A DNA stretch of 51,734 bases, counting the filler, from Jimgerdemannia flammicorona (taxonomy: Eukaryota): the NCBI GenBank assembly GCA_003990765.1. It is 2 parts of 2 records of this genome, joined end to end, with 100 filler letters (N's around TTAATTAATTAA, not from the genome) between each part and the next. Parts side by side here need not be neighbours in the genome. Positions count along the whole stretch, not along the records: positions 25,918 to 51,734 come from RBNJ01000787.1; 1 more part is not named here. One strand, written 5' to 3'. Position numbers and translations under genes: made by a program. Shown here in pieces: positions 1 to 43,791 of the stretch. The number at the start of each line of letters is the position of its first letter. Position 1 is the stretch's first letter. The notes under the pieces are model-generated. The model had not been told where the DNA came from. It searched no databases and was given only the letters and a program-made list of their open reading frames with translations.

Positions 1-1
1 C

Positions 2-14730: not shown

Positions 14731-17700
14731 GTATAGAATATACTTTTAAATAGGACTAATAGAGAGAAGAATGCTGGAGGCTGAAGTGGTAGTCTGAACA
14801 TATAAGAGAGGGTAGAGTATCTAAGTTCTTTAGTATATACTAACAGATTAGTGTTGGATAATAGAAGGGTTTACACTCACTGGATAAATGAACTTGATAT
14901 GTATATAGATTAATTAGATACTAACTACTGAATACTTGGAGATAAATATCTAAATAGATCTTGAGGTAGAATAGTGATAATAATTAGACTATTGAGGGGT
15001 AAGAGAGTAGGGGTTATTTGGGAGAAGCAGGGAGGAGCTTGAATATTGATGTCTTAATTCCTCTCTATTAGCTGAGAAGAGATTGTGAGAGACATAAGCA
15101 GTAGACATTGAGTTGTAGATTGGCAACTGGAATTATAAGAGATCTTTTAAAGAAGTTTGCTAGGTGAAGTTAAAGAAGACTACTAGAGTAGATTGAAATA
15201 AGATTAGTAGGGTTTGAGGGACTCAATAGTAGTGGAGGGTACAGTGAGCTTCTTGTTAGTTAGAGAGATTATATCTAGAATAGATCAGTTAGTTGAGCCA
15301 GAATACTGTAGAAGACTGAAGAGTAGAGCAGATTTGACTAGAGGTAGAGAAGTTAGAGAGATTGTTAAGAGAGGAGGAGGAGTTTCATATATAGAGAATG
15401 GCTATTAGATTGAGATAGCAGGGGCTTAAGGAGAGCAAGAGGTCTTCTAAGTATTTGTCAAGACTTCTTCAGACCTAAAGAGTGAGGTAGAGTTAGGCTA
15501 AAGTGCTAGATAAGAAGAATATCTTAGTGAATAAAATACAACAGATCTTGGATTCTCTGAAGAGAATATAGAGAGGTCTGTTGAGTGAGAAGGAAGGGGG
15601 TTCAGATGAGGAGACCATCAGGTATGCTCTGGAGGATTAATATCTTCTATAAATAGATAGTTTTGATAATCTGATACTGCCAGTTCAAGTAGAGGAGATA
15701 CTATAGATATTGGTAGCTACTAAATTGAGTATAGCTCTAGATAAGGATGGTCCATCTTGGGACTTTTGAAAAAAAGTAATTAGAGTCCCAGGGGTATTGG
15801 GGGAGATAGTGGTACTTTGTGACTTTGTTCTTATATGTAACTAGTAAGTAGATTGGAGAGCAGGACCTTAGTCTGATAGTACTGCTGTATAGAGATAAGA
15901 GTAGGAGAGAAAATTAGAAGAATTGGAGACTGATAATACTTTTAGATATAGACAGGAAGCTAGTTACAAAGGTTCTTATTATAAGGCTATAAGGAGTAGC
16001 TCAACAGATATTAGGTGAGAAGTAACAGGGCTATATCAGGAGCTAGCTTATTAGTAATGAGACAGTATAGATATATAGTGTAATTGAGAGAGTAAGGACT
16101 TATAGGCTGAATGGAAGATTGGTCTTTCTGGGTTAAAAGAAGGCCTATAATCATGTTTAGTAAGTCTGACTAGAGAGGGTATTAGATATATATGTAATTA
16201 ATATTCTACAGATTCTGGGTTTTTATAATTCATCTATTAGAGGGCAGTAGGGCAGTACTTTTATATGTAATAACCATCATAGTACTTCTTTCTCATTGGA
16301 GAGAGGGGTTTCACAGAGAGATCTATTGTTCTCTATTCTGTATAGTATTTCATTAGAACTATTAATAGATAGAATTTGCTATAAGATTGCTAGACTCTCA
16401 GTCTTTAGTATTATTTGGAAGATGGGAGTCTTTACAGATAATATGGTAGTTAGTCTGAGCTCAGTAGCAGATATGAATGCTCTGTAGAAGCTAATAGAAT
16501 AGTATGAGGAATACTCTGGGGCAAAGCTTAACCGGTATAAGTATGAGATAATGGTTTTGAGTAATAGTCTGGTGGGTAGAGATAACATTGGAATAATTGT
16601 CCCCACAGAAGAGGTGGTGAGGTATCTGAATATTCTTTTATCAGGATATAGCTCTGTCTTATCCAAAGCTTGATGGGAGAGAAAGGTTGATGTTTAGAGA
16701 GAGGCTCTTTGGAGCTAGGGGGGACATCATATCTCTCTAGTGAGTCAAGCATTAATACTTAATATTTATTAATTGTCCAAGCTATAGTATTTGATATATT
16801 ACTTGGATTTTTCAGCCTAAGTAGTAAAGAGATTATTGAAAATAGCAAAAGACTAAATCTGGGCTAGGAAATAGTGTCAGATAGACTGGAGGGTCCTGGC
16901 AATATCTGTGGATATGAGAGGTTTTGATCTGATGGATTTCTTTAAGTAGTTATATTGCTTAAGAGCATGGTAGATGAAGAGGACTATTGAGGTAGGTAGG
17001 TGTTATCGATGCAGAGAGTCTGAGAGATAAGATTCTCTTCTAGAGACTCTTTGAGTGATCTGCTATCACTGTTTAGTCTAGAGAGTAATAGATGGAGCTC
17101 ATTAGATTAGTCTATAGTAATAGAGTAATAAGAAAGAGATATATATATTGGAGCTCAGTGATATAGTAGTAGGATAGGCTACTTCTGAGTGATTTCTTAC
17201 TGATTGACTTTAATATTAGTATTGGCATAGAGTACTAGAGAGAGATAGGACAGGATTTGTAGCCAGTTGGCTGATAGATAGTTGGAATTAGCAACGAGTA
17301 AAACTGGACTGATATCTGGTCCTAGAGTTATTAGATACAGTAATAACTTTCTCTAAAGTACTGAGTGGTCTAGTGATGCTTACTAAGAAGGAATATTATG
17401 TTGAATTTTTGCTCAGGATATTTAGTTGATAGAGGGTACTTTGATTGTAAAGAGTATTATAATATAAGATAGAAGAGGGGGTTTGTACAGATCCCTAAAC
17501 ATTGGCTGAAGGATTGTGAGATTATTAGTAACTTCTGAAGACAGATTGGGGATCATCTAGAGATAGAGTGGCAGGTGGATAGAGTAGGGAGTAGATGGGC
17601 AGATCTGAAGGTAAGATTGGTAGAGTGTATTAGCAATAGGTGGCTTATGATGAAGTAGATAGTCATAGTATGACTGGAGTTGGCTGAATATTAATTATTT

Positions 17701-23595: not shown

Positions 23596-23677
23596 CATCT
23601 TTCTCCAGTAACATTCAGGTTACACAAGACTTGGACGACACTTTCTACAACGTTTTTGGTGTTCAACGACTAACAAT

Positions 23678-25594
23678 ATGGACGGCAACGATCGATCTGG
23701 TGAGCGTACTGGCCAGGGGGGTGGCAGCGCCTTTGGCTGGCAGCAGGTGGGGAGGAGGGGAGATGGTTTGGGGATGCCAGGGGCCTCGATGGCTAGCCGG
23801 GGCCCCAGTGGCGGAGGGAGGGGAGGTCTGAGGCAGAGAGGAGGGGAGAGGACGACCTTTGCTGACAAGGTAAGGATGGGGACGATGGCTACTGGGCTGG
23901 ATAGTTGGCTGGGCCTGGGGAAGGCGTCGATGGCTACTACCCGGGGTCAAGGAGGTGCGACACAGGGTGCTTCTGGTGGTAGGGAAGAGGCCAGAGTAGG
24001 GGCTGGAGATGTGACGGTTGATGGGGCTGTGACTGGGGATCTGGCAAAAAATCCAGATGTGACAGCGGTTGGCAATTCGGGACTTGGAGTGGGCATGAGG
24101 CCCGGGGACCTGGCGGATGGGGTGACAGGCATGGTGTCGGCCCCGTTACTCAAGAAGTCGAGGTCCGAATTCGCGGTCACAATGTGCTTCCGGGGCTTGG
24201 CAGTGACGGCAAGGATGATTCTGGGGCTGGTGGCGCAGGAGGCTAAGGGAGCAGCGTCGGTGAAGTTTTTGAGGGGGAAGGAAGGGGTTGAAGTGGGGTT
24301 CGAGGAGGAAGATGCCTTGTTGGCAGCCATGGAAAAGAGGGTGATGGTGGGCGGGGTTGTGGTCCCTATGGCTCGGTGTATGCGCTGGGACCCCCGGGTG
24401 GTGCAGTTGACGGTGTTGGACCTCCCTACGGTGTCGAAGGAAAGGACCAGGGAGTTGGTGGTAGAGGCGATAAAGGAGTATGGCGAGATTGTGGACGTGG
24501 GGTTCAAGGTCTGGGAGGGTACGGAGCTTCGAACCGGTGACATCGATGTCAGGGTGCGACTGGCTGGAAAGGAGAATACGGGGAAGTCGAGGGACTGGCC
24601 AGCAGCGCTGAGGTGGGGGCCAGTGGAGTGTAAGGTCGCTAGGGTGAAGGGGACTCAGGAGGAGGAGGAGGACTTGCTGGAAGCTCTGGAGGACCTGGAA
24701 GGGGCTGTTGCAAGGAGGAGATTAGCCTGGAAGGAGTTCGAGGACAGGACGGTGGTGGGAGAGGTGGATGGGAAGAGGGTTCGGATGGAGAAAGGGGCCT
24801 GGGAGAAGATGCAGGGGAGGAGGATTCAGAAGGAGTTGTTGGCAAAGTTGGACAGGGGTAGGGCTGGTGGAAGCTCCAGGGAGGGGGCTGCAGGGTTGCA
24901 GGAGAGTACCTGGGCGGAAGGAGGAGAGATGGCCTAGGGCAGGACTCCGATTGGAGGTGGGGAGGAGAGGGAGGTTAACCTGGAGGTGGATGCCGATATG
25001 GGGGATGGTGGGTGCCCTCAGTATAGTGTGCCGAATGGGGTAGGAGGCGAGGAGGAGCTGATGGATGTGCCAGATGAGGAGTGGGATGAGTCAGTAAGGA
25101 GGAGCGCACTGGTGGACCCCGAGGTGGATGGGGGACGAATTGCTCAGGGGGCGGCGGAGGCAGTCGATGAGGAGAAGTAGATGTGGAAGACCCTGGAAGG
25201 GGTAGCGGCTGAAGAGCTGGGGGGTGAGGACTTCAGGGTGATGAAGGAGAGGCATTGGGAGGAGATTCTACGTGGGGAAGAGGTGCCGAGGAAGATGAGG
25301 AATGAGATCCTGGCGGTCCTCTTGGAGTCGGTTGAATATCAGGTTGATGATCAGCATGAGGAGGAGCTTAGACAGATTGCGAGTGAGAGGGCACTTGTCT
25401 TGTGGAACTCAAGGAAGGGACTGGAGAAGTGGTGCACAGTCTGCTTAGATAATAGGGCAGATATGGAGGAGGTGGACAGGGTGGAGTGTCAGGAGATCTT
25501 GGGGGCACTGGATGCTCAGGATATTGAGGAGGGGGAAGTGGAAGCTGAGTGGCTCTTGAACTTGGTGAGGGATGAGATGAGCATGGAATTATAA
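23678..25594 (+). pseudogene. LINE E ORF1 with two in-frame TAG stops
   Basis: The 419-aa, 64-aa and 137-aa ORFs lie in one frame and are homologous to ORF1 of copy C. Confidence 0.85.
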
Positions 25595-25817: not shown

Positions 25818-25917
25818 NNNNNNNNNNNNNNNNNNNNNNNNNNNNNNNNNNNNNNNNNNNNTTAATTAATTAANNNNNNNNNNNNNNNNNNNNNNNNNNN
25901 NNNNNNNNNNNNNNNNN
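25818..25917. other. Assembly gap with artificial six-frame stop linker
   Basis: N-run, TTAATTAATTAA (25862-25873), N-run; 100 bp in total. Confidence 0.97.
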
Positions 25918-28650
25918 GAACTCCTAGAACAAGGATTCATCAGACCCAGTGTGTCACCCTACGGTGCACCAGTCCTCTTTGTTGTCAAGAAAGGAGGAGA
26001 CCTGCGAATGTGCATTGACTACCGTGACCTCAATGAACAGACCATCAAGAACTATTGCCCACTACTGAGGATTGATGAAATATTCGATAGGCTCACCAAC
26101 CCACAATTCATGAGCTCCTTTGACCTGCGAAATGGTTACTGGCAAATTGCCATGAAAGAAGAAGACATCTACAAGACAGCTTTCCGAACTCGCTATGGAC
26201 ACTTCGAGTTCTTGGTTATGCCTTTTGGCTTAACTAATGCTCCAGCAACCTTCCAAACACTGATGAATACCATTCTGTATCCATACCTGGACAAATTCGT
26301 TGTTGTCTACATTGACGACATCCTAGTCTTCAGCAAAACCCTGGAGGAACATCTTGAACATCTTGAACTAGTACTACTGAAACTCCGAGAAAACCAACTC
26401 TTTGCAAAACTCAGCAAGTGCGAATTTCTTCTGAAAGAAATTCAATTCCTTGGACACATTGTCACTCCGAATGGAATCAAAGTGGACCCCAGCAAAATCT
26501 CTGCAATCAAGAATTGGCCCAGACCCAAGAAGCTGAAAGACCTCCAGTCATTCCTGGGATTAGCAAACTATTATCGGCAATTTGTTGCCAACTTTGCTAA
26601 GATCGCTACTGCCCTCACCCAAATGACCAAGCACAACAAGAAACAAGAACAACCCTGGACCATGAAACAAGAGAAAGACTTCAACAATCTTGTAAATTGG
26701 AGACCCGAACAAGATACCGCCTTTCAAGCACTGAAAGATGCTCTGATAACCACACCAGTACTTCAAGCGGCAAACCCTGCCCTACTATATGAAGTCACCA
26801 CTGATGCCTCTGACCTAGCTCTTGGAGCAGTGCTCATGCAAGAAGGACACCCTGTGGCCTATCACTCCCGCAAGTTCAATGATGCTGAAATCAACTATGC
26901 AACTCATGAGAAGGAAATGCTAGCCATCGTAGACACTCTGATCAAATGGCGACCATATCTAGATGGAGCACACTTCACTGTATTGACTGACCACAAGTCA
27001 TTAGTCAACATCAAGACCCAGGCTACCCTTTCTCGAAAGCAAGCCAGATGGATGAAAGTCCTCACCAACTTTAACTACGAAATTCAGTACCACCCTGGCA
27101 AGGAAAATATTGTTGCTGATACAATCTCCAGACCACCAATTGAAGAGGTTATCCAAACTCTGACCATGGTTACCAACACTATCATGGAACAAATCATCGC
27201 AGCATGTGTAGATGATAAAGAAGCTCAAGCACTCCGAGAAATCCTGAATAACGATGATGCTGACAAGCATACCCGGTACAACCAATACCAACTCAAGGAC
27301 AATGCTATCTACTACAAGGACAGACTGTATGTTCTGAACAACCGAGACCTCCGAAGGACTATCCTATTCGAATGTCATGATGCCCCTACAGCTGGACATT
27401 TAGGATTCAATAAATGTTACGAAGCTATCTCTCGAAACTTCTATTGGCCCCACATGGCAGATCAACTCAAAACCTACATCACTTCCTGTAATGCCTGCCA
27501 ATGAAACAAGTCCTCAACACTAGAAAAACCCGGCTTACTCCACCCTATTCCAGTACCATCCGCAAATTGGGAACAAATCTCCATGGACTTCATTGTACAA
27601 CTACCCCGAACCAAGAATGGAAAAGATGCAATTGTTGTCTTTGTGGACTATCTTAGCAAACAAGCCCACTTTGTACCTACCACCACTACTGCAACAGCAC
27701 CAGACATAGCCACACTCTTATTTGATAACATCTTCCGCTATCATGGTCTTCCCAAGATCATTGTTAGTGACCAAGATCCGAAATTCACCAGCCACTTTTG
27801 GAAAGCCCTCCATGCACACCTTGGAATGAAACTTGCACTATCCACAGCCTTTCACCCTGAAACTGATGGCCAAACCGAAAGAATGAACCGAACTCTGGAA
27901 CAAATGCTAAGGAACTATGTTTCCTACAGACAAGATGATTGGCATGAACATCTCACTGCAGTCGAGTTTGCCTACAACAACAGCAAGCAAGCCTCTCTTG
28001 GAATAACCCCATTCTTCGCCAATACTGGACAAAATCCAAACACCCCATTGACACTTATCCGAACCACTGAAGAATCCTCCACAGTTGAAGCTGTTGAAGA
28101 ATTCCTACTCCGAATGCGCAATCTAAGCCAAATCGCAATTGAGAATTTATCACAAGCTCAAGAACAATAGTCATGGTATGTTAACCAACACCGCCGAGAA
28201 GAAACTTTTGATATTGGAGAAAAAGTCCTACTTGACATCAGAGGATACCGAGTTGACAACCTCAAGCACAGACCATCTACAAAGCTGAACAGCAAGTTCA
28301 TTGGACCATTAGAAGTCATCGCACAAGTCTCTCCAACCTCCTACAAACTGGTGCTACCGGACACCATTAAGATTCACCCAGTCTTTAATGTTCAACGTCT
28401 CAAGCAATACAATGACAATGATGACGAGCTATTTCCAAACCGGACCACCAAACCACCCACACCTGTCATTATTAATAACCAAGAAGAACATGAAGTTGAA
28501 CAAATCCTCAACAAACATGGCAACAAGAACCATTCCGAGTACCTTGTCAAATGGAAAGGTTACCCGATCCACGATGCAACCTGGGAACCCAAGACCAATC
28601 TCCAGAATGCTACTGACCCAGTTCAGGAATATGATTCCTTGAACAACTAG
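25918..28650 (+). pseudogene. pol: Gypsy pol: RT, RNase H, integrase, chromodomain
   Basis: [31 protein letters not shown] ([12 protein letters not shown]), MDF, SDQD, ETDGQTE; IGP module; EVEQIL..YLVKWKGY..ATWEP chromodomain. One frame with only two stops (27502, 28168). Confidence 0.96.
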
Positions 28651-28885
28651 AACCAAACACTCTGCACCTATCCATACATACTATATATTATCCTCCCGAA
28701 CATTATAACTATCACGAACCAAGTCAGGAACTCAGCAAAACAAGACAAGAATACCAACTCACTGGAAAAATAGCAAAACTGAAAGCAAGCCTATTCTCCC
28801 TGTACCACTGGTGGGAAACAAGGCATAGACATTTAAGAAGATTCCTTAGAGGAAATTCTCCAGCAGTAAATGACGTCAGAATCAC

Positions 28886-28960
28886 TTCCGGCACACGGCA
28901 TTGAACACACGACCCTTTAACGTGTGAATCCAATGCGTTAGGCAACTGTACTATGAGCAT
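28886..28960 (-). other. Degenerate tRNA-like sequence (Val-CAC-like) with Pol III A/B-box resemblance
   Basis: Minus strand ATGCTCA TAGTACAGTTG..TTGGA TTCACAC GTTAA AGGGTC GTGTG TTCAATGCC has tRNA-like spacing; stems only partly pair. Confidence 0.5.
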
Positions 28961-29075
28961 GCTACTTTCTGAGAAAATGGACCTTACCAGACTTTTGACC
29001 TCCCAAATGGTGTAACAACACTAGAACAAATTAAAAGGCCCCGACGAGGACGTCAAAAGCTAAGAAGGGGAGAGT

Positions 29076-31136
29076 TGTAAGCGCACAACCTCCAAGCCAC
29101 CGAAATTACACGTCACCCTCTGAACAAGCCACTGAAATCACACGCAACCTCCAACAAATCTGGAAATCACCTGCTTGATCACGAAGCTGAGTCAAACCGA
29201 AGTCACAGCGCACAAAGTTGAGTCAATACGAAGTCACAGAACACAAGACCTACACAAACGGAACCTTACCAATCAGAACCAAATGTATATATACTGAGCA
29301 CCGAGACGCGTCGAATCAAAGAACCAAAACAAACAATAACCACAACTTCCAAACACACAAACATGACCACCGAGATCTACAACCGCATCCGCGCTGACAT
29401 TTGGAATGCCATTGTCAACCGAGCTACACCCCCTCTGCCCCTCATGAATATCCATAGCCTGGCCCCCCTCTACTTTGTGGAAGCCCGATGGAACGCCCTG
29501 AACATGCTTAGCGAGGCCTACCAAATCGGACAAATCTCAAGCTACTACCAGATCGGCCACCTCTTGGAAGACATGGTCGAATACCACCATGATACAGACA
29601 TGACCCAGATGTCTCAACACCAGAAGCTCATCGCCCGCAAACATCGAGAACTCTTCTATGAGTACAACACCTTTATCCCCCGCCTCCGAGTTACTACCAG
29701 CGAAATGGTTGCTACCCTGTCCTACAGCCAAATCGACGACATGATACAAGAAATCAACCACAAATACCTCGAGTATGTCGAAACCACAGACAGAACCTTC
29801 CCGCACCCTGATGACCACATCCTGCAAATGCCTCAAGTCGGATATGCCATAAAGGACGTCTACGATATAATCCACTTTGATGAAGATGAAGCAGAAGACA
29901 ATGATCCCTCTGATGCCGACATGACCTCTAGCCAAGGATCTCTGCCAACCCTGATCACTCCGCCAACCTTGCCGATGAACTTACAACAGTTCATAACTGC
30001 ATACGAGACTTATTGGGACAATGACCACTGGCACGAATACCAACCCGTGTTCACCCCCGATTACTTCAACTACAATGAAGAGACTGGAGAACACAACCTA
30101 TACCTTCAGACAACCCTCGAGATTGAACCAACCACTCCACCACCCGAGTATGAGCAACTTGAATCACAGCCGCCAGCTTACTACAACCCCGCGACTCATA
30201 GTGCTGTAACCTATAGAAGGTATGCAGATAGCGAATCCGATGAAAGCGAAGACAGTACACCCATCCTTCGCCCACCAACACCTTATCCAGCATATGAAAC
30301 AGACGATGCTATCCTGTGGGACGGAGATGAAGTCCCAATGTATTACTACCTCAGCCAACAAGGAGAAGTAATCCGCGAACCACTCTTCCTAGACGACTAC
30401 TTCATCAGAGATGATGCAATTGATGGTGATGTCATCGAAGACTACCCAGATAGTGCTTAAACCTATAAATAGTCTAGCAGTCATAGTATAGATAGATTAG
30501 CCTTGTACGACATGACTGTGAACTGACTCAGCAGTCAGACGATCTCTTGACATATCAGATCACACTTGTACTACGTGACTGCATTCTGACTCAGCAAGGC
30601 ACTTAGTGCTACATCCATATTCAGCATAGTCCAGATAGCCCCTCACTAGTATAAATACCCCCTCCCCTAGACCTCAGAATCTCAGACTCGAACACACAAG
30701 AACATTCCTGAACACTTCCCCACAATATCCCTTCACACAAATACTCCTAGTATAGCAATATCATGAATAGCAAATAAACCTATTCCATAACCCACAAACC
30801 ACTCTTAAGTAAATCCACTCCCTGTTAGGTCCTACTCCTAACCCTGTCACGAAATTTCCTAATTGGGTATTGTCTGCAGCGATACGCCGATTCAACTAAG
30901 CTGGTCTTAGTTTCTTGAACTTCCTGAAAAACGGAAAATCCTGAACATCCAGAACTAGTCCGGAAAAGGACTTTGGTTGAGACGTCAACCCAATCTTGAA
31001 ATCAATAAGCATAGAGGATGTACTCCATACGAAATTGATCTTGACCATAAGAAAACGGTCTTCCAGACTATCCAGAACTTCCAGAAAACCCTTCCAGAAC
31101 TACGTAACGGTTACCCTAAAAAGCAACCCTCTTACA
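29076..31136 (+). repeat. 3' LTR of copy 2 (~2.06 kb)
   Basis: TGTAAG..CTTACA after the PPT; colinear with 867-2905. TATAAATA at 30650 and AATAAA at 30773. Confidence 0.94.
29363..30460 (+). CDS. 365-aa acidic protein of unknown function encoded inside the LTR (putative U3)
   Basis: Uninterrupted ATG-TAA ORF. Length conserved in copy 1, with many synonymous differences. TATATATA ~75 bp upstream. Confidence 0.78.
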   Translation: MTTEIYNRIRADIWNAIVNRATPPLPLMNIHSLAPLYFVEARWNALNMLSEAYQIGQISSYYQIGHLLEDMVEYHHDTDMTQMSQHQKLIARKHRELFYEYNTFIPRLRVTTSEMVATLSYSQIDDMIQEINHKYLEYVETTDRTFPHPDDHILQMPQVGYAIKDVYDIIHFDEDEAEDNDPSDADMTSSQGSLPTLITPPTLPMNLQQFITAYETYWDNDHWHEYQPVFTPDYFNYNEETGEHNLYLQTTLEIEPTTPPPEYEQLESQPPAYYNPATHSAVTYRRYADSESDESEDSTPILRPPTPYPAYETDDAILWDGDEVPMYYYLSQQGEVIREPLFLDDYFIRDDAIDGDVIEDYPDSA

Positions 31137-31264
31137 GTAGCAGAGAAAGAAGCTGGAAGCTATACATATATATATTTATACATATGCTATATCAACATCA
31201 ACTTTAACAGATCAGTTATAAGTATTTTCTAATACTGGTGATACTTTAAGTTAGACTTATTTTT

Positions 31265-33230: not shown

Positions 33231-33244
33231 GAGTTAGAGTTAGG
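33231..33244 (+). repeat. Decayed telomeric-repeat junction (GAGTTAGAGTTAGG)
   Basis: G>A-mutated GGGTTAGGGTTAGG directly before the CTTCAAG terminus of T1. Confidence 0.75.
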
Positions 33245-36200
33245 CTTCAAGTAAGAATTTATTCATTGTAGAGAAGATAAGATATATCAGAGCAACAAAC
33301 AGCAAAGACTCCTAAGATGAGAAAAGCAAAAAAAGGCCAGTGAAGTAAACAATTAGCTAAGAAGTACAAACAAAGACCAGAGAGGTGACCACCCTATAGA
33401 CAGGCTGGATAAAACCATTTTATCATGGCTGTAGAGATAATAAATGCAAAAAAGCAAAGAAGAGAGAAACTAAATAAGATACACAAATGCCCAGTGCCAA
33501 CTATAGGAACATATCAACATCCAAACACCAAGTGACTAATATGAGATAAATAACTCAAAGTACTCTCAACAATGAGAGAACCAACTAAGGTGAAGGAGAA
33601 GAAAGAAAGAAATAAAAAAAATGTGCAATTACTCGATCACCCAAGTATCTTCATAATCTCAGTTAGGCAGAACCCAACTGCAAGGTGGCCACCAGAATTA
33701 TACATAGCATCAATAGCATGGTAGGCTTTCTTGTGAAGAGCATATAGAGGGTAGGCATAAAGTTCTTCCTGCTATTCATTACTGATAAACCAATTGAGTT
33801 ATTCATCATAATCAGAATTATCTTGGAAAGTGGAATAGGAACCATTGAGAAGACCGCACCTGAGGAGATGTTCACAATGAAACTTATCTCTACAGGGGCA
33901 GGGGCGGGGTTGGCCAAAGTAGCCATAATACCAGGTAAGTGCAGAGCACACAAATCAGAGGAGGAAGAAGAGGATATGATCAGTGCCCTGTGACCACAAG
34001 TGGCCTTTGGGAGTAATATACTGAATAAGCACCTGGGAGGAGAAAGTCAATTCCTGCAACAGCTGGTTTCAGAGGAATAACTGGAGGAAGGAGTAGAGCA
34101 AGTGGGTCTTGCAGACCTAGAGATGAAGGTCTTAGTACCAGTCAAGGAAGTTAAGACAAGAGGTCCAATGCCAGAACTTATCAATGATAGAACCCAGGGG
34201 ATATGTGACAAAGTGCTCAGTGAGAGAGCTGATGGGGTTGTTGCCAGACTTGCTACACTAATCCAGATGGGCTTAGAATATATAGCAGAGGTCCAACATG
34301 TGACGAAGGAAGGAGGGGAGGCCAAGAATTGAACTGCCAAGCAAGAGATGGCCAGAAAATCTGACTGCCCAAGCAACAGCATCATCAAAGACCTGCTCAG
34401 GATGCTTAAATACCTGAAGCTCCATAGTAGTAACTGGGCAGGAAGCTTGTAGAAGAAGAAGGCCATACTCTAGCTGAGGCCTAATGAATGTCCATATAAT
34501 GGCCGACTTGACCATTGGCGACCAGAGAGGACTGCAGACATGGCAGAACCCAAGAGTTTGTTCTATCTTTACTGCATTCTATAACACAAGGCTGACAAAG
34601 TCAAACCCTTTATTAATATACAACATACCTAGGTATATGTAAGAGTAGGGTTACAGGCAGAGCTTGTCTCCAATCTGCACAGTACAATTGGCTGGGTCAA
34701 TACAACTGCACTTCTTGGGATTGAGTTCCATACTGTTTGCCAAAAGCCAGTCCTCACAAAAGCCAATCATCCTTTGCCCCTTGCAGCAGTGCAGGGGGTG
34801 AGAGCAATATCATCAGCATAGAAGAGCCTGAGGGGGAAGTCATACTCCTTGAACTGCTCATCAAAGGAGATGGTGAGGAGGTCAATGAAGACATCAAAGA
34901 GCCAGAGGGAGAAGAGAGAGCCTTGGAAGAGACCACGCTCAGTGGGGACCAATGGGGTGATGAGGCCATTAACAACTACCTGATAAGAACAGTGATTGAA
35001 GAGGCTACAAATAATACTAAGGAGGGCTACATCAGCTCCTCATACCTCAAGTTGAGAAAGAATGAGCTTGAGGGGGACTCTATCATATACCTGCCAGAGG
35101 TCAAGAAAGACACGGTAGCCCCACTCCTTGGCCCATGTCTTGTGCAAAAGCAAGATATAGGAGAGGGATGAGAAGTAGGTTCAGAAGCCACCTTGGCAGT
35201 ATGATATTTCTGTCAGGCCACTTCGGCTCTTGATGTATCCTTCCAAACACTACTCAAAGAGTCTACAAAACATTTCAGTAAGAGCAATAGTGCGAAAACC
35301 ATCAATTGTACAAGATTACTCCTTCTTGGGAACTAGGGTAATAATGGCAGTATTCTAGTAGCGAGGAGTGAGCCCTCAGACCATGCACATCGGGAAGAAG
35401 AATGACAAGACTTTGGAGAGGTCACAGGGAGTATTCTTTTTGCCCGCCATCACCTAAAGGATCTGAACATACAAAGAGTCAGCCCCACAGGTCTTCGAAA
35501 GAAGGTAGCTGTAGATAGCTCTCCAAACTATAGGCTGGTCAAACCAAGCCTGTAGCCCAAGAGCATTCACACTAAAGGAGAAGACATCCTTGGAGTCATC
35601 AAGGTGGAGGGAGGCATTTGGTTGGCCAAAGATAGTGGTAAAATGTACAACCACATCATCAAACACCAAGACAGCAGGGGAGTGAGATTGAAGGGGTGCA
35701 GAGGGTGTGGAGTAGTATGCTTGCTTAAAACTATAAATGGCATCAGAGACCATAGATATACTGTGAAGAAGGTCCCACCAGGGGAGTAGCACTGCTCTGA
35801 TTTCTATTGCATCATATGAGCCAAGAATATTCTCACAAACTGACAATAGACCAGAGGTCAAAAGAGCATCGAGAGAATCCACAAACTGCTGGCAATCTTC
35901 CACAGAGTGAAAGCCAGAGATGTGGTCTCGAATAAAGTAGATAGACCTGACAACAGTATTGTAAATGATATCTGCTAATTCTCGAAGATGGGCTTGGATA
36001 ACCAGATTGGTCAGATATCTCACAGAGTAATAACAGATGTCAGTCAAGGCAGCAACTGGTAAGGGAGAGAAGGAGAAGAAGACAGTGAGGAGGGAGGGGT
36101 GGTCAGTAGTGATAAGAGGGGTGGAGCAGATAAGGGATGCGTAGAGGGATGTGGTGGTGAATGCATAATCAATGTGTATCCAGCCACCAGGGTCAGATGG

Positions 36201-37891
36201 TTCAATGACCATGTCATCAAGGAGATGTTGATGACATCAATCTGATCTCTAGGACTAGAGTTGACATCACCAAGACAGGCACCGAAGTGGGTGTTGATGT
36301 TACCGATTAGGAGGGTCTTTCCCAGGAAGAGACCAGACTCAATATCACAGAAGCTACCAATAGGAAGAGAGAGGGGGGCATAAACTCCAACCAAAGCCAA
36401 GCCCTGGAACATAAGCTGGATATAGAAGGGATCGGTGGAGGACTTGGAAATAAGGGGGGCAAAATGGTTTAACACAAAGACCATGGGACCACTATTCTGG
36501 TGACTTATGATCCTATATAATGCTGGAGGAGAGGACATGTAAATGAGCAGAGAGGGATATAGCAGAATGTGCCATATTTCACATATATAAAGAATGTCGA
36601 GGGCAGGACCAATCAACTGACTGAGCATATTGAACTTGTCCTAGGGTAGTCTGTGTGCATTCTGGAACCCAACTCTCATTGTGGGCTAGGTGTGTTAGCA
36701 CCAACAGCATGGGAAGTATCTGAGGAGGAAGCTTTGGCTTCCAGATCCATTGCCATCTCACCAGTCATGGCTACAATACCACCTGCCTTTGAAGCAGGGC
36801 CAGCCGACAGGGAGGTGAAGGAGGGGAGAGTTAGGCCAAGTTCCACAGCCCAAGCTCAGTAGAAGGTCTGCATCTCAGGCCTCTTTGCAGTGGCATCACC
36901 AGCCAACTGTCAGACCCGAGCATAGAAAGATCAGAGTACGTGTCTTCACAGCCTCTATTGTGTTCTTGTTGTGGGGGAGTGCAGGGTCTCAGATTGAGAG
37001 CATTGAGAACCTGAGCATCTTCATCTTCTTTTGGAATGCCATGATATAATCAGGGTAGAGATGGAATTCTATGGTTGACACCGAGATGTATGACATGTTG
37101 AGAACTTTTAAAAACATTATATAGATATCATACAAGTTCTTTCAGATCTGCCTGATCTTAAGATGGGCAAATCTGTCAATGTAAACATGCTATAGCTGAG
37201 CACCTCTCTCAGTCAGTGACAAATGAGAGGTTGGCTTGCAGATAATGTGAGAAAGGGCAGCAGTAGCAGCTGCCCTTTCTGTCTTGGGGTAGGCCTGGGT
37301 CCTATCCTTGATAGAGACCTTCTTTTCAGTGGTGACATATGATTTGGGGGGGGCAGGAGTTGAAGCAGGGGATGGAGATGGACTAGCAGTACTGGGTTCT
37401 ACAGGTATAGCCTGGGGTAATGGCCCAAGGGCCTTGGCCTTGCCCTTTTTAGAGAGTACAGCTTTAGTAGCTGGAGGTACTGATGTGAGAGTTGCCTCCT
37501 TTAGTGGCACACTAGACTGTGATGAGGCAGCTTTAGCAGCCTGCTTATCCACTCGCTTCTGGGCCTTCAACCATATGTTTACAGCAGGACCAGTAAGAGG
37601 GGGGGCCAAGGACTTAGTGGGGGTAGATGTGGAAGAGGCAGTGGGGGTACCTCCAGAAGGAGCACCAGATGATGAGGGGGTGGTGGGTGCAGACTGCACA
37701 GCAAGCTGTGCCATCAGCTGGGCATTGATCTTGACCAGTTTGGCCACTTGAGTTGGCAGATCCAATCTCCGCTTCCTCATCACAGCTATCTCCATGACCA
37801 GATCAGAGTTGGCTGAGGGGCCTGCATGACTGGTAGTCAGGGTCATATACATACTAGTGTTTAGGTGACCATGTTTGTTCTAATTGAGGAA
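33245..37891 (-). mobile_element. Telomere-repeat-joined APE LINE, copy T1 (5' truncated in ORF1)
   Basis: VGVYAP, GNINT, IDYAF, TDH (APE); QGSLFSLWLFDVFID, FYADD (RT); CPC..H..C C-terminus. Confidence 0.9.
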
Positions 37892-37902
37892 TTAGGGTTA
37901 GG
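37892..37902 (+). repeat. Telomeric-repeat junction TTAGGGTTAGG (T1/T2)
   Basis: Seen directly; followed by CTTCAAG. Confidence 0.88.
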
Positions 37903-40207
37903 CTTCAAGTAAGGGTTTTATTCATTATAGAGAAGATAAGATACATCAGAACAACAAATAGCAAAGACTCCTAAGATGAGAAAAGCAAAACAAGGCCAGT
38001 GAAGTAGACACCTAGCTAAGAAGTACAAAATAAAGGCCAGAGAGGTGATCACCCTATAGATGGGCTGGATAAAACCATTTTGTCAGGGCCATCAAGATAA
38101 TAAATGTGAAAAAGCAAAGAAGAGAGAAACTAAAATAAAATATACAAATACTCAGTACTAACTATAGGAAGAATATCGATACCCAAACACCAAGAAACTA
38201 ATATGAGATAAATAACTCAATACACTCTCAACAATAAGAGAACCAACTGAGGTGAATAAGAGAAAAGAAGAAAATAAAGAAAATGTATAATCACTCAATT
38301 ACCCAAGCATCTTCATAATCTCAGTCAGGTAGAACCTGACCACAAGGTGGCCACCAGAATTATACATAGCATCAATAGCATAGTAGGCTGTCTCGTAAAG
38401 AGTTTGAAGAGGGTAGGCATAAAGTTCTCCTGCCATTTGTCATTGGTAAACCAATCAAGCTGTTCAGCATGATCAGGAACATCTCAGAAAGCAGAGTATG
38501 AACTATTGAGAAGACCGCACCTGAGTAGATGACCATGATGAAACTTATCTCCATAGAGGCAAGGGCAGAGTTGGCCAAAATAGCCATAATGCTAGGTAAG
38601 CGCAGAATGTACAAGTCAGGGGGGGAAGGAAAGGATATGGTCAGTACCTCTTGACTGTATGCGGCCTTTGGGGGTAATGTACCAAATGAGAACCTGGAAG
38701 AAAGAGGCCCATTCCTGGAGCAGCTGATTCTGAAGGAATGACTGAAGGAAGAAGCAGAGTAAGTGAGTCTTGCCAACCTAGAGACAAAGGTTCCAGTACC
38801 AGTAGAGGAAGTCAAGCCAAGAGGTCCAATACAAAACTTGTCAATAATAGAACCCAGGGGATACATGACAAAGCGCTCGCTAAGGAGACTGATGGGGTTA
38901 TTGTCAACTTGCTATACTAATCCAGGTGGGCTTAAAACATGCAGCAGAGGTCCGACATACAATAATGGAAGGAAGAGAGGCTGAGAATTGAACTGCCAAG
39001 CAGGAGATAGCTAGAAAATCTAACCACTCAAGCAACAGTATCATCAAAGATCTGCTCAGGATACTTCATCACCTGAAGCCCTGTAGTGGTTGCTAGGCAG
39101 GAGACTCATCGAAGGGAGAGGCCATACTCCAGCTAAGGACTGATGAAAGTACATATAATGGCCAGCTTGACCATTGGTGATCAGAGAGGACTACAAGCAT
39201 GGTAGAACCCAAGAGTACATTCTGCTTTTGCTACATTCTGCAATACAAGATCAACAAAGTCGAACCCTTTGTTAGTGTATAGTATACCTAGGTATACAAA
39301 GGAGGAGGGTTGTGGGTAGGGCTCACCACCAATCTGCACAGTACAGTCAGTAGGGCCAATATAACTGCACTTCTTGGGGTTGAGTTCTATGTCATTTACT
39401 AAGAGCTAATCCTCACAGTAGTCAATCATCCTCTGCCCTTCTACAGTAGTATAGGGAGTGAGAGTGTTATTGTCTGTGAAGAAGAGCCTGAGGGGGAAGT
39501 CATACTCCTTAAACTGTTCATCAAAGGAGATAGCAAGGGGATTGATAAAGACATCAAAGAGCTAGGGGGAGAGAAGAGAGCCCTGAAAAAGACTGTGCTC
39601 AGTAGGGACCAAAGGAGTGATGAGGCCATTAACAACTACTTAGTAAGAACAGTAAGTCATAAAAGAATGAGCCTGAGGGGGACTCTGTCATAAGCCTGCC
39701 AGGACATGGCAGCTCTATCTCTTAGCCCAAGTCTCATGTGAAAGCAAGATATGGGAAAGAGATGAGAAGTGGGTTCAGAAGTCACCTTGGCAGTGCAACA
39801 TTTCTGTCAGGCTACTTCAGCTCTTGACGTAACCTTCCAAATACTACTCGAAGAGTCTATGAAATATTTCGGTAAGAGCAATAGGACGAAATCTATTAAT
39901 TGTTTGTGATTCCTCCTTCTTAGGAACTAGAGTAATGATGATGGAGTTCCAGTAGCAGGAAGTGAGCCCACAAACCATACATATCTAGAAGAAAAAGAAC
40001 AGGGCTTTGGATAGGCTACAGGGGGTATCCTTTTTGCCTGCTATCACCTGAAGGACCCAGACATATAAGGAGTCAGCTCTACAGGCCTTTGAGAGAAGGT
40101 AGCTATGGATAGCTCTCCAAACTGTAGGTTGATCAAACTATGACTGCAGTCCAAGAGCTCACACACTGAGGGGGAAGACAGGCCTGGGGGCCTTGGCTTT
40201 GCTCTTT
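37903..40207 (-). mobile_element. Telomere-repeat-joined APE LINE, copy T2 (internally deleted, 5' truncated)
   Basis: Colinear with T1 33245-35587, then ~30 bp matching the ORF1 KKGKAK region. Confidence 0.88.
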
Positions 40208-40226
40208 TTAGGGTTAGGGTTAGGGT
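40208..40226 (+). repeat. (TTAGGG)3 junction between T2 and the Penelope-like element
   Basis: TTAGGGTTAGGGTTAGGGT seen directly. Confidence 0.93.
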
Positions 40227-40526
40227 GAAGATTGTGAGGTTTAAGCAAAGATTTATGAAAGAAATCAACAGAGTCGAGCAATAGCTATGTTAGATCATAG
40301 AAATCTTTGAACATCTCTTGTCAGACTTGCTATTGCTTAAATACCTTTCACTTGTCCGCTTTGGACTTAGTAATTGATTATTGTTTACACAATGTAATAC
40401 GAAATTAATTATGAATGAGAGTGAATTACTTCTCAGATTTCACAATCAGGTAGCTTTGATCCACTGATCAAATCACATTTTTCTTTTAAGATTAGGGTCG
40501 GGCATGTGCTACCGATTAGAATAAAA
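40217..40526 (-). repeat. PLE 3' direct repeat (pLTR)
   Basis: Aligns by eye with 43437-43791; the latter has an extra AT-rich insert. Confidence 0.9.
40277..40337 (-). ncRNA. Hammerhead ribozyme, mutated copy
   Basis: Core reads CTGACAA..CAAA; stem I AGCAATAGC/GCTATTGCT is intact. Confidence 0.6.
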
Positions 40527-40590
40527 CACACATTGTACAGTACAGGAAAAGGAAAGATACAGTGTGACATTTTATGACCAGTCATGTTTA

Positions 40591-42340
40591 TTATAGGGGT
40601 GATTTGCCTGCTATTGATAGCATCTTCTTGTTCTGCTTCTCAATTAGCTTCTTTAAGTTGAGACCATGATAAATAACTGGGCTGTACTTTACAAGACAGT
40701 GTTGAGACAGAGTATTCATCACTCTGGCAGCCAAAGATAGTGCACAATGATGGTAATAATTACCAGAATAATTGTGCATATGGTGTAACATTTATCTTAC
40801 CGAGCTTAGGGCCAGACTCTTCATTATTCGCACGAGAATCCTCCGAAAGCATATGGGAGCAGTCTTGATAAGATTCAAAACTCAAAAGATAAGCGATCTG
40901 ATTTGGTTTGAAGGTACATTGTACCAAAAACTGACAGAATTCAGAAATTGCTACTTCATAATTGTCATACTCTGATGAGTTCTGAATAAGGCAAGTATTC
41001 TCACCTCTAAGCCATCCATCAATATATGCTTGTGGATAATACATATCTGGCATAGAGTAAATATGAAGATTTATATCTTTATCATAGTTTCGGAACTGAA
41101 TTGACCGAGTCTTATCAGCTTTGAGCTTCACATATACTTTAAGATTGCAAAATATAACTTTGTCAGCTATATGTTGTGTGAAGTACAAACTAGAGCTCAT
41201 TGTTATAACATGTTTTGCAGCTTCATCGCCCTTATCCATAATGATAATGATGTCATCGATGAATCAGAAGTAAAGTTCCGGTAGAATCCCTTGATCATCA
41301 AGCCTTAGTTCATAAAAAGCCATAAAGAGATTTGCTACATTGGGTGCCAAAGGCATGCCCATTGCAATTCCTTGAATCTGTTGATAGATATGTCTGACGT
41401 ATTGAACAAATGCAAACTTAATCACAAAGTGCAATATCTTTATTTAATATCTGTAGATATGTTCTTTAGAGTAATCAAATCACATAAGAACTACAAATAT
41501 TTTCCATAGACACTCATCGATGTTAATGTTGGTATATATTGACTCAATGTCCGCTGCTAGTAATGTTACAGATCCAGAAAAAAACTTTCCTTCAACATGA
41601 TTAATTACATATTTGGAGTCGGAAGCTACCATTCGACACATAGAGATATATGGTTTCCAATAGGCATCTACAGCTCTCAAAGCATCGCTGGTAATCCAGC
41701 AGTGGTTCAGAGAGATAGGTCTTGACTTAACAGGATTTTTATAAAGTTTCGGTAAAATATAGAATTCTGGAATCTTACATTTCACAAGGGAAGCTTGCCA
41801 TGACTTCACCTGTTTGAGGGCCGAATGCGAGACATTTTTGTCAAGCTTTTTGGCTTCATCAATCAATAACATGAGAGATGTATTCGTCTCAGTAGAATTG
41901 AAAGATTTCTCAACAAACATTGACATGTCAGTGAGGTGACCCAACACTTGTGAGTTGTACCAGTCATAATCCATAAGTGTAAGACCAAGTCCTTTATCAG
42001 TTTTACAAACAATAAGGCAATTATTTCGCATAAAGTCATGTAGATGTTTGATGGTATGCAAGTAGCAGTTATGAGGATTTATTTTATTTGCTTTGCCAAA
42101 ATGGCGTACAAAATTACTCTCCACAACATGAAGACCAAAATCAGCTCGAGTAGTTAAGCCTTTGTCCCAGCCTTATTCTTTTGCCCCCACAAGGACTTCT
42201 TGACAGACAGATCACCAGCTTTGGCAGGCCTGTTCAATATCAAGACAAGTGTGAAAATTGAAGTTAAGATCTTTGTTTAACAGATCAATAATGTCACTTG
42301 GAATTTTGGAGATATGAGAAATATTATTCACAAAAACATT
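40591..42340 (-). pseudogene. Penelope-like reverse transcriptase
   Basis: VNNIS..LLNKDLNF, KTDKGLG, FYILPKLYK..RPI, DSKYVI, ADIESIYTNI, QIQGIAMG.PLAPNVANLFM, YF*FIDD, YDKDINLHIY..GWLRGE thumb region. Confidence 0.92.
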
Positions 42341-43336
42341 CTTATTGGAAATGTTATGGAAATGTACTGTTTCCCATCTTTTGAACCAGACTTCTCTGAT
42401 CCTCCTTTGCCTTTGGTCATAGTGTTTTTTGTCTTCTTCGGCAAGCCCTTTTTCAGGATCAGCTTCTTGTATAGCACAGCTGTTGCCGATACTTTTGATT
42501 TGGCCTTCCCCTTCACAGGGCCCATTACCTTTGGCTTATTCATCAGCTTTGCATTTTCCTTTATCTAAAGACAAGGGAACATGAGTATCAAGCCAGATAG
42601 AAAGTAATTTGATTGGCTTGAAAGCCTCATCAATGGGGACATACAGTGTAGTCACTCTTACTTTTTTCTCTGGGGCCAAAACAGCCTCAACATACATGTT
42701 GTGCAATTTGTTAGCAAATTCGCTAACAGTATACTCTAGGTATACTTTGGCAAGCTGATCATGCCTATCGTCCTCATGGAATACCAATAGCTTAGGTTCT
42801 AATTCTCCCCAAAGAGAGGTGACCAGGCTATTGAGTTCAGAGTCACACTCCTTCTAAACTTGTTATTTAGATGTAATGATAGCCACCTTAACTTCTAAGG
42901 CGATAACGTCATAGATATGCTTAATGGATCCCTTGGGAAGAGAGACATTTTTAACCAAGAAGTCATAATATTTTCCAGGGTCTTTCTTCTCTGCTGCCAC
43001 TGCAAGGTGAACTGCTTTCTTACAGCAATCAATCAAGATTACTGCCCATGCTGCATAGTGTTTGACATAGTCGACCAGGGGCAGTTCTTTTATCAGAACT
43101 GTGGAGGAGCCTTGACCACCAAAGGTTGGAGGGATGGGGACCACAAATGGGGTACTCTTGGGTGGTAGTCTATGAAATTCCTCATGAACCGCAGTATGAA
43201 CCATGGCTATTTCCTCAGCATACATCTCAGCATCTTCAACAATATCGTCGAGAGAAGCAAACTGAAGTACCAATTGGGCCACACAAGATAGACCTTCTGG
43301 CATATCAGAATTGATGCTAGGAGCATAAGACCTCAT
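42341..43336 (-). pseudogene. PLE upstream coding region (ORF1-like), unknown function
   Basis: The 212-aa and 83-aa ORFs share a frame broken by point stops; probable start MRSYAPS at 43336. Confidence 0.6.
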
Positions 43337-43436
43337 TGCTTGCTGTTGAGCAAGCAGGGTGGAGGTGAGGTCAGAGTGAGAGTTATTATCATTCGATATA
43401 TCATAAAGATAAGTTTTTTTATAAAAAGGTAATGAG

Positions 43437-43791
43437 GGGTTAGGGTGAAGATTGTGAGGTTTAAGCAAAGATTTGTGCAAGAAATTGACAGAGTCGAGCA
43501 ATAGCCATGTTAGATCACAGAAATCTTTCGAACATCTCTCATCAGACTTGCTATTACTTAAATATCTTTCACTTGTCTACTTCAGACTTAGTAATTAGTT
43601 ACTGTTTACACAATGTAATACAAAATTAATCATGAATAAGAGTGAATTACTTCTTGGGTTTCACAATTGGGTAGCTTTGATCTACTAATTAAATCATATT
43701 AAAATAAAATTTTAATTAAATTATAATTATATTACTGAGCAATTTTTCTTTTAAGATTAGAGTCAGGTGCATGCTACCGATTGGAATAAAA
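43437..43791 (-). repeat. PLE 5' direct repeat (pLTR)
   Basis: Direct repeat of 40217-40526 beginning GGGTTAGGGTGAAGATTGTGAGG. Confidence 0.9.
43497..43558 (-). ncRNA. Type I hammerhead ribozyme
   Basis: Minus strand: AATAGCAAGT CTGATGA GAGATGTTC GAAA GAT TTCTGTG ATC TA ACATGGCTATT. Intact core, short stem II, stem III, CUA cleavage triplet, stem I. Confidence 0.8.

Follow-up and report, generated by a model that had tools for sequence, protein, structure and literature searches.

The window, a stretch of 51,734 nucleotides from the Jimgerdemannia flammicorona genome, consists of two contigs joined by an artificial spacer, and the two copies of a long terminal repeat (LTR) found in it sit on different contigs (Table 1). 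The 28-kb distance between copy 1 and copy 2 is therefore artificial. Copy 2 follows the pol gene of element 2, whose 5' end is truncated by the contig start. This element is of the chromovirus type, that is, Ty3/gypsy with a chromodomain integrase. The Pfam matches RVT_1 (1.5e-34), RT_RNaseH (2.8e-33), Integrase_H2C2 (5.5e-19) and rve (8.2e-10) occur in chromovirus order in a single frame between 25918 and 28170, and within 28171-28650 the Chromo domain (PF00385, 1.2e-15) comes after SH3_Tf2-1 (2e-16), at the integrase C-terminus. Translation reveals two in-frame stops in this pol, at 27502-27504 and 28168-28170. Its closest relatives are just 33-64% identical and come mostly from plants and metagenomes. 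Element 1, before LTR copy 1, is internally deleted: the protease and the start of the reverse transcriptase are followed by a jump to the region preceding the polypurine tract. Neither tRNA genes nor Rfam families were found in the window.

The two LTR copies are 90.5% identical by alignment and BLAST. The limits of copy 2 coincide with positions 29076 and 31136, at which contigs from public sequencing runs break, and the TGTAAG at 29076 and the terminal CTTACA are exact inverted complements of each other. Three purine runs of at least 9 nt occur in 28900-31136, and AAGAAGGGGAGAG is the only one that adjoins a TG terminus. Related copies in runs X1, X2 and X8 continue past 31136 into ACTTGGTAGCAGCAG-like sequence. 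Of the hallmarks of a chromovirus LTR, the TG...CA termini and the polypurine tract are present, and the primer-binding site is seen only as a putative 9-nt remnant after copy 2 and in the loose ends of related contigs. The window contains no paired 5' LTR. From these limits and signals we infer the following layout for copy 2: U3 from about 29076 to 30680, R from about 30680 to 30795, and U5 up to 31136.

Candidate regulatory sequences are found on both sides of the open reading frame (ORF) described below. The direct-repeat pairs of 29093-29241 stand upstream of the first TATA-like motif, and one 31-nt unit of these repeats is missing in copy 1. The initial annotation had given the ORF a TATA element of its own at 29286. 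A TATATA is indeed present there in copy 2, whereas copy 1 and nearly all related copies from four public runs have a C at position 29286 and read CATATATA. The stretch between this motif and position 29363 is free of ATG. Beyond the ORF, a further TATAAA lies at 30464, and the 30494-30596 repeat is upstream of the main TATA.

Table 1. Features of the window, with the observation on which each one is based.
Feature	Position	Strand	Basis
LTR copy 1, on the other contig	867-2905	+	alignment and BLAST; preceded by the same polypurine tract as copy 2
Decayed ORF copy, length unchanged, 87% amino-acid identity	1123-2220	+	alignment to copy 2
Artificial contig-joining spacer, N44-TTAATTAATTAA-N44	25818-25917	.	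read directly
Element 2 pol (RT, RNase H, integrase, SH3-like, chromodomain)	25918-28650	+	Pfam and translation
Polypurine tract AAGAAGGGGAGAG, one base ahead of the LTR TG	29062-29074	+	purine-run scan; conserved in copy 1
LTR copy 2, 2,061 bp, TGTAAG...CTTACA	29076-31136	+	alignment with copy 1/BLAST, termini read directly, breaks of run contigs
Two direct-repeat pairs (29093-29149, 29180-29241), candidate promoter module for the ORF	29093-29241	+	repeat search, families D3 and D4
TATA-like motif (TATATA), 70 nt upstream of the ORF ATG	29286-29293	+	motif scan
365-codon ORF, ATG to TAA	29363-30460	+	only long frame there
40-nt direct repeat, two copies, 63-nt spacing, candidate enhancer of the genomic promoter	30494-30596	+	repeat search, family D1
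TATAAA, presumed genomic RNA promoter	30650-30655	+	motif scan; conserved in copy 1
AATAAA, presumed poly(A) signal in R	30773-30778	+	motif scan; conserved in copy 1
GTAGCAGAG right after the LTR, read as primer-binding site remnant	31137-31145	+	direct reading

The open reading frame and its product

The ORF begins inside the TG...CA-bounded repeat, 289 nt past the only polypurine tract, and belongs to a stop-to-stop frame of 412 codons (29222-30460). Because it lies downstream of that tract and upstream of the LTR TATA and poly(A) signals, it is located in U3. Polypurine tract, termini and signals agree with its earlier placement wholly between the LTR start at 29076 and the TATA at 30650. 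This is the arrangement of the sag gene of mouse mammary tumour virus (MMTV), which has its complete ORF in U3, and not that of the plant-type additional ORFs (aORFs), which sit in the internal region, ahead of the polypurine tract and the 3' LTR.

The frame is far longer than the composition of the LTR allows, and its codon pattern is that of the element's own pol. None of 2000 dinucleotide-preserving shuffles of the LTR produced an open frame of at least 365 codons (maximum 250 and mean 108.5, versus the 412 seen), and the other five frames over the same open stretch contain 5 to 28 stops each. The codon log-likelihood against pol usage is +95.6 bits in the ORF frame, versus -218 and -160 in the other two, and base composition by codon position mirrors that of pol. 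The + strand of the LTR is A/C-rich and poor in T and G. With only 2 stops in about 910 codons of the pol accompanying copy 2, about 0.8 stops would be expected in the ORF, so that the open frame of copy 2 is by itself unremarkable.

The product would be a protein of 365 amino acids, 42.8 kDa and pI 4.2. Its C-terminal half holds 42 D+E, 18 Y and 22 P in 190 residues, and the peak Kyte-Doolittle hydropathy in a 19-residue window is 0.86, indicating that there is no membrane segment; the D/E/Y/P-rich character and the lack of an obvious transmembrane segment had both been noticed in the initial annotation. Signal peptide and transmembrane segments, the features of an env-like ORF3, are therefore not found in this protein. 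The profile and structure searches that had been suggested, notably for the N-terminal part, yielded no family, solved-structure or fold match. Pfam gave nothing for the ORF protein at E<=0.01, and nothing for any of the three family members even at E<=10. A PDB sequence profile search gave no match below E 0.15, the best one spanning a 27-residue stretch, and the ESM Atlas search gave no usable match. The AlphaFold2 models were of low confidence, with a pLDDT of 33 for the whole protein and 50.6 for the N-terminal 175 residues. With the latter model Foldseek found 0 matches in the PDB at E<=0.001 (best E 1.9, TM about 0.2), an outcome that is meaningless at a pLDDT of about 51. Homology to Sag, Nef or Bet was not seen in the Pfam (E<=10), PDB sequence or Foldseek searches. 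The product is predicted to be a soluble orphan protein of acidic character, whose N-terminal part of about 140-170 residues would be helical and whose acidic C-terminal half is rich in Tyr, Pro and aromatic residues. Two PPxY motifs occur at residues 260 and 270; we rejected them as a conserved functional site, since the homologue P0001 lacks PPxY. The phmmer matches P0003 and P0004 were also discarded: both are bacterial repeat proteins in which 6-9 repeated weak stretches inflate the score.

Divergence between copies and within the family

In copy 1 the ORF has decayed by substitution. The ATG has become ATT, and there are three stops, two of them CGA to TGA changes as initially reported (codons 42 and 109) and the third a CAA to TGA change (codon 265). 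The equal length of the two ORF copies was borne out by an alignment with 0 gap columns in 1098, and the LTR flanks of the ORF differ between the copies by indels of 31, 10 and 1 nt. Over the ORF there are 110 differences in 1098 nt, distributed as 30/17/63 over codon positions 1/2/3, and the third-position excess appears in both halves (15/7/35 and 15/10/28). The frequent synonymous differences pointed out in the initial annotation also held: 59 changes are synonymous, against 42.9±4.0 expected, and 0 of 5000 permutations preserving trinucleotide context reach 59. The excess persists in the two-copy comparison when the mutable sites are set aside, as had been recommended. Without CpG contexts there remain 67 differences (15/12/40), 36 of them synonymous against 24.5±3.6 expected (P = 0.0012), and without both CpG and CpA/TpG there remain 31 (6/5/20). 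Codon-model maximum likelihood over 362 codons gave an omega of 0.276 and a kappa of 13.2, with a likelihood-ratio statistic of 34.2 (p = 5e-9).

Over its whole length the ORF is no better conserved than its surroundings, with a divergence of 10.0% compared with 8.6% and about 7.5% in the non-coding LTR flanks. The negative control of the phase test, the non-coding 3' flank, was itself biased (28/15/7, p = 0.001), a bias that was traced to CCAGAA/CTAGAA changes that recur in motifs with a 9-nt period. Because this control deviates too, we place the weight on the context-preserving, codon-model and amino-acid tests, and the raw codon-phase chi-square does not stand alone. Both compared copies are collinear LTRs, so their divergence postdates any capture of the ORF. 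Taken together, these comparisons show the ORF to be a real coding sequence that has been under purifying selection since it joined the LTR.

Only two homologues were found among 5.8 billion proteins, both of them detected because they are open frames. P0001 (247 aa) is 65% identical to ORF residues 115-364, with the C-terminus in common and two in-frame 2-aa gaps. P0002 (128 aa) is 91% identical and has the same start codon as the ORF. Among the 83 residues replaced in P0001, 44 (53%) are BLOSUM62-positive, whereas neutral simulations kept open gave 29-31%±5, with 0 of 300 reaching 53% at each of three kappa values. In simulation, neutral drift to the identity level of P0001 meets 5-6 stops on average. 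The comparison of the two sequences shows that P0001 differs from the ORF mainly by conservative replacements. No relative was confirmed in metagenome contigs searched with the ORF and P0001 alignment and with P0002, and no DNA relative in genome contigs or viral contigs.

Family copies were collected from four public runs belonging to three studies, as Logan contigs of at least 80% likeness; these contigs measure 150-450 nt, too short for a paired 5' LTR to be followed as far as the ORF. They provided 5,109 pieces on the LTR stretch. Although the ORF makes up 45% of the covered stretch, it contains 0 of the 12 indels listed of 15, and 0 of the 4 skips listed. Among the 32 pieces listed of 5,109, gaps were seen in 1 of 17 in the ORF versus 8 of 15 outside. 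The 26 best-supported family variants in the ORF divide into 13 synonymous and 13 non-synonymous, a split that leans the expected way without reaching significance. Contig depth in these runs climbs twice, near 29064 and near 30430; such depth cannot rank the parts of the stretch.

A probable accessory gene carried by the repeat

Our main reading, to which we give a probability of roughly 0.75, is that the ORF encodes a genuine accessory protein of a chromovirus (Ty3/gypsy) family and is located in the U3 of its LTR. It shares with MMTV sag the location of a complete ORF inside U3, and would hence be found in both LTRs as well as at the 3' end of the genomic RNA. Unlike Sag, which is a membrane glycoprotein, the ORF protein has no hydrophobic segment and, with no Pfam match even at E<=10, no sequence relation to Sag. 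Moreover, its carrier is not a retrovirus but a Ty3/gypsy chromovirus of a non-vertebrate host. The nef gene of HIV/SIV and the bel/bet genes of foamy viruses are accessory genes that lie at the 3' end, beyond pol/env, and run into U3. They only overlap U3, however, starting upstream of the polypurine tract, whereas the whole ORF lies downstream of it with a TATA-like motif of its own, and they show no homology to it. As far as it was covered here, the literature on ORFs in LTRs concerns almost only MMTV.

The aORFs of plant elements (Vicient and Casacuberta 2020, PMC7264820) are similar in being conserved extra sense ORFs 3' of pol, present in many copies and of function not known. That review places additional ORFs between pol and the 3' LTR, and the phrases 'in the LTR', 'within the LTR' and 'inside the LTR' are absent from it; in contrast, the present ORF is inside the LTR and has no env-like features. 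In a survey of Tcn1-like elements (PMC2864245), a figure legend assigns an 'add. ORF', its function unknown, to chromoviruses of fungi and plants. These are likewise chromodomain Gypsy elements with an unexplained extra ORF; the legend does not state the position of that ORF.

One could imagine that the ORF is real but internal. The true LTR would then be short and start after 30460, and the ORF would be a sense aORF of the ordinary kind that many plant Ty3/gypsy elements carry between pol and the 3' LTR. The two copies of the window are both junctions of the 3' type, where about 45 nt of internal sequence common to both, together with the polypurine tract, come first, so that the window alone cannot fix the 5' end of the LTR. 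In addition, some public-run contigs begin to match only near 30406-30458, with unrelated sequence before, so that the family may include members whose U3 is different or shorter. We nevertheless regard an internal ORF as decidedly improbable. The interval 30461-30650 has no purine tract, the TG that adjoins the only polypurine tract is the one at 29076, and the hexamer at this position is the exact inverted complement of the other LTR end. Furthermore, one X3 contig has 72 unrelated letters directly before 29076, and in one X2 contig position 30766 of another LTR copy is joined directly to TGTAAG and 29085 onward; these contigs show that the LTR terminus at 29076 occurs without the element's internal region in front.

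A different proposal is that the ORF is a passenger, a host gene or a fragment of another element that was captured into U3, is useless to the element and retains a coding signature from its earlier life. Gene capture by LTR retrotransposons is well known (PMC7264820), and an orphan protein with no link to retroelement proteins would suit such an origin. It is nonetheless unlikely, as the divergence of the collinear LTRs, although posterior to capture, still shows an omega of 0.28 and a synonymous excess, the lineage at 65% identity retains frame, C-terminus and conservative replacements, and codon usage equals that of pol. According to the same review, transduced ORFs occur in one or few copies, versus the thousands of contig pieces from four runs here. 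Finally, the frame could have opened by chance in an A/C-rich, T-poor LTR, or be kept open only through cis-regulatory constraint on U3. The scarcity of T and G on the + strand does lower the number of stops, and the ORF is matched in conservation by the non-coding LTR around it. This explanation is strongly disfavoured and very remote: 0 of 2000 composition-preserving shuffles exceed 250 codons, and constraint in cis yields neither a synonymous excess, nor a pol-like codon pattern in a single frame, nor conservative replacements.

With the ORF in U3, reverse transcription would copy it, with all that lies between the polypurine tract and R, to both ends of the element; by this mechanism each new insertion should carry the gene twice and a solo LTR should keep it. 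Expression would most likely involve a short mRNA of about 1.5 kb contained wholly within one LTR. Its start would lie shortly after the TATA-like motif at 29286, which has the two direct-repeat pairs upstream; its first AUG would be the ORF ATG, and it would end at the LTR's own AATAAA (30773). Alternatively, the ORF could be the 3' cistron of a subgenomic RNA, like retroviral 3' accessory genes. As to its role, our best guess, and a doubtful one, is a trans-acting factor that might aid transcription of the family or counter silencing, as an acidic adaptor or activator. The PPxY motifs, absent from P0001, would permit contact with WW-domain ubiquitin ligases. We tentatively suggest that the LTR may be a self-contained gene cassette with a promoter module, a first-AUG ORF and its own poly(A) signal, in which case each 5', 3' and solo LTR would independently express a trans-acting protein specific to the family, such as one that activates the LTR promoter or suppresses host silencing. 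If so, this would be a sag-like U3 gene outside retroviruses, and the factor would still be supplied by solo LTRs and by elements with internal deletions, like element 1.

A complete and selectively maintained gene within an LTR has known parallels mainly in a few retroviruses. LTRs are treated as purely regulatory DNA, and the pipelines that find and annotate them do not seek genes there. A selected gene in U3 would be duplicated with every insertion and would outlast recombination to solo LTRs. The dose of its protein would then scale with the number of LTRs and not with that of intact elements, which would be a different logic of self-maintenance and regulation for the family. The ORF product also offers a tractable orphan protein for the study of the interplay between transposon and host in a soil- or root-associated eukaryote.

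An ORF in the U3 region of a chromovirus LTR

The 365-codon ORF lies entirely inside LTR copy 2, on the right-hand contig, between the LTR start (29076) and the TATAAA box (30650), as the initial annotation had described. It was also said there that the equivalent frame in copy 1, on the left-hand contig, had kept its length and that two of its three stops were CGA>TGA changes; the alignment of the two copies, which contains no gap, confirms both points, and copy 1 has lost the ATG as well. No ATG is found between the TATA-like motif at 29286 and the ORF start. The carrier element is a chromovirus. Element 2, which bears copy 2, is no longer intact: its contig starts in the middle of the reverse transcriptase, and its pol frame has two in-frame stops. 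Element 1, on the other contig, is a non-autonomous derivative with an internal deletion; it has retained the ORF-bearing LTR, and a short AACCAAGAAC-like stretch is common to both sides of its junction. Since the window consists of two contigs joined artificially, distances and synteny across the linker are meaningless.

Coordinates of the ORF, its carrier elements and other features of the window
Feature	Position	Strand	Remarks
Element 1 remnant	1-866		keeps protease (DSSAS motif region) and beginning of RT; rest of pol lost, sequence resumes in pre-PPT region
LTR copy 1	867-2905		left-hand contig; 90.5% identity to copy 2
Second retroelement, unrelated	10465-10845	-	RVT_1 fragment (1.5e-10)
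480-aa open frame near RVT_1 fragment	13313-14755	-	no Pfam match
Contig-joining linker	25818-25917		N44-TTAATTAATTAA-N44; six-frame-stop type
Element 2 pol	25918-28650	+	one frame; RT, RNase H, integrase zinc finger and core, SH3-like, chromodomain
Polypurine tract (PPT)	29062-29074	+	13 nt; ~410 nt past pol stop
LTR copy 2	29076-31136	+	TGTAAG start, one base after PPT; CTTACA end
Direct repeats, two pairs	29093-29149, 29180-29241		upstream of TATA-like motif
TATA-like motif	29286		upstream of ORF
ORF	29363-30460	+	365 codons; 412 codons stop to stop
Repeat pair	30494-30596		upstream of TATAAA
TATAAA	30650		downstream of ORF
AATAAA	30773		3' of TATAAA
CCAGAA/CTAGAA differences between LTR copies	30900-31100		non-coding U5; spurious 3-base phase signal
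Tandem units, four copies	33232-50313		unit about 4.7-5.9 kb; 62-86% mutual identity
Tandem-unit open frames	47552-48619 (longest)	-	up to 355 aa; no Pfam match

Copy 1 is preceded by the same PPT and by about 45 nt of internal sequence common to both copies; neither a further LTR copy nor a 5' LTR was found within the window. The boundaries could be examined in contigs from public sequencing runs. One contig of run X3 carries 72 unrelated letters directly before 29076, and in one contig of run X2 position 30766 of one copy is joined straight to TGTAAG and 29085 onward, which looks like the insertion of one LTR end into a different LTR. Nine contigs (five from X1, two from X2, two from X8) continue after 31136 with a ACTTGGTAGCAGCAG-like sequence, which we take to resemble the complement of the 3' end of the initiator tRNA; the window has GTAGCAGAG directly after this position. 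The single PPT and these boundaries place the ORF in U3; its presence in a 5' LTR, for which the contigs are too short, would follow from the mechanism of reverse transcription.

A segment of ~220-280 nt between pol and the PPT (28750-29028) is absent from copy 1, and 28810-29028 is skipped by at least one public-run contig, a pattern resembling a subfamily indel of the 3' untranslated region. Elsewhere, GC skew over positions 1-26000 is very strong and changes in blocks (about -0.5 at 4-6 kb and 10-14 kb, +0.4 to +0.5 at 16-26 kb), which suggests stacked strand-biased repeats, and the block 23612-24937 (54% GC) has long open frames on either strand.

Purifying selection on the ORF inside the LTR

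When the LTR was shuffled 2000 times with its dinucleotides preserved, the longest open frame, both strands considered, had a mean of 108.5 codons and a maximum of 250. Over the ORF, the remaining five frames contain 5 to 28 stops. With the codon usage of the element's pol as reference, the ORF frame scored +95.6 bits and the two shifted frames -218 and -160 bits, and base composition by codon position parallels that of pol.

Of 1098 sites, 110 are different between the two ORF copies (30/17/63 by codon position). CpGs number 20 in copy 1 and 47 in copy 2, and at 35 of the 110 differences a CpG of copy 2 stands opposite TpG or CpA in copy 1. Since CpG loss is the main form of decay in copy 1, the permutation null reshuffled each change among sites with the same trinucleotide context. 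Under this null 42.9±4.0 synonymous changes are expected; 59 are observed, a number reached in 0 of 5000 shuffles. The synonymous excess stays when CpG and CpA sites are excluded, as the initial annotation had advised for dN/dS across all LTR copies: 67 differences are left after removal of CpG contexts (15/12/40), 36 of them synonymous versus 24.5±3.6 expected (P = 0.0012), and 31 when CpA/TpG contexts are removed too (6/5/20). Moreover, a pairwise codon model (F3x4, 362 codons) gave an omega of 0.276 with a kappa of 13.2 and rejected omega = 1 (likelihood-ratio statistic 34.2, p = 5e-9), and the third-position excess is seen in each half of the ORF.

The 3' non-coding portion of the LTR, taken as negative control, also had uneven phase counts (28/15/7, p = 0.001) because of recurrent CCAGAA/CTAGAA changes at motifs that lie 9 nt, or a multiple of 9 nt, apart; the raw phase test is therefore not trustworthy alone. 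Whole-ORF divergence (10.0%) is not below that of the LTR flanks (8.6% and about 7.5%). As both sequences are collinear LTR copies, their divergence is later than the arrival of the ORF in the LTR. The ORF is shown to be a coding gene under purifying selection inside the LTR.

LTR words also turn up in metagenomes from soil and roots and in 'organism A' runs. About 5,100 short contig pieces from four runs of three studies aligned to the stretch at 80% or more likeness, with C>T and G>A changes predominating. None of the 12 indels listed (of 15) and none of the four skips listed falls inside the ORF; among 32 pieces listed of the ~5,100, gaps occur in 1/17 in the ORF versus 8/15 outside. The 26 best-supported ORF variants comprise 13 synonymous and 13 non-synonymous changes, a split in the expected direction that is not significant.

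Relatives and properties of the ORF protein

Only two true relatives were found among 5.8 billion proteins (near and shorter lengths) and, with phmmer, 1.84 billion cluster representatives, both on metagenome contigs of about 1 kb. P0002 (128 aa, 91% identity) has the same start codon as the ORF. P0001 (247 aa) matches residues 115-364 at 65% identity, with the same C-terminus and two in-frame 2-residue gaps. Neutral drift to its divergence typically meets 5-6 stop codons; P0001 entered the database as an open frame, a bias from which its conservative replacement pattern is free. Of its 83 replacements, 44 (53%) are BLOSUM62-positive, versus 29-31%±5 in neutral simulations forced open, where 0/300 reach 53% at each of three kappa values. 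P0003 and P0004, two other phmmer matches, were dropped as bacterial repeat proteins with repeat-inflated scores.

The acidic, Tyr- and Pro-rich protein without a transmembrane segment foreseen from the sequence is borne out: the product (42.8 kDa) has a pI of 4.2, and a hydropathy scan found no hydrophobic segment. Helices are predicted up to about residue 170, both structure models being of low confidence. In the acidic C-terminal half, Tyr, Pro and aromatic residues abound, and well-conserved blocks are shared with P0001. PPEY (260) and PPAY (270) occur in both window copies and are absent from P0001. No match was found in Pfam, PDB sequences, the ESM Atlas or a fold search with the low-confidence model.

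A putative role, and comparison with known systems

Additional ORFs (aORFs) of LTR retrotransposons are well described, and the review consulted sites them between pol and the 3' LTR (PMC7264820); the present ORF, inside the LTR, falls outside this positional definition of the plant-type aORF. An 'add. ORF' without known function also figures in a survey covering chromoviruses of fungi and plants, with no position in the passage concerned (PMC2864245). For ORFs within LTRs, full-text searches of papers outside subscription journals yielded essentially MMTV sag papers alone, and an earlier description is possible. The likeness to sag is one of gene arrangement in U3; homology of the ORF protein to Sag, Nef and Bet was tested and not found.

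The ORF would most likely be transcribed either from the upstream TATA-like module, its ATG being the first AUG and the LTR supplying its own poly(A) signal, or from a subgenomic RNA. An activator or an anti-silencing factor is our best guess for the protein, and a doubtful one. The U3-resident ORF itself is a real, unusual feature, which by the mechanism of reverse transcription would be duplicated at each insertion and whose product may act in trans for the element family.
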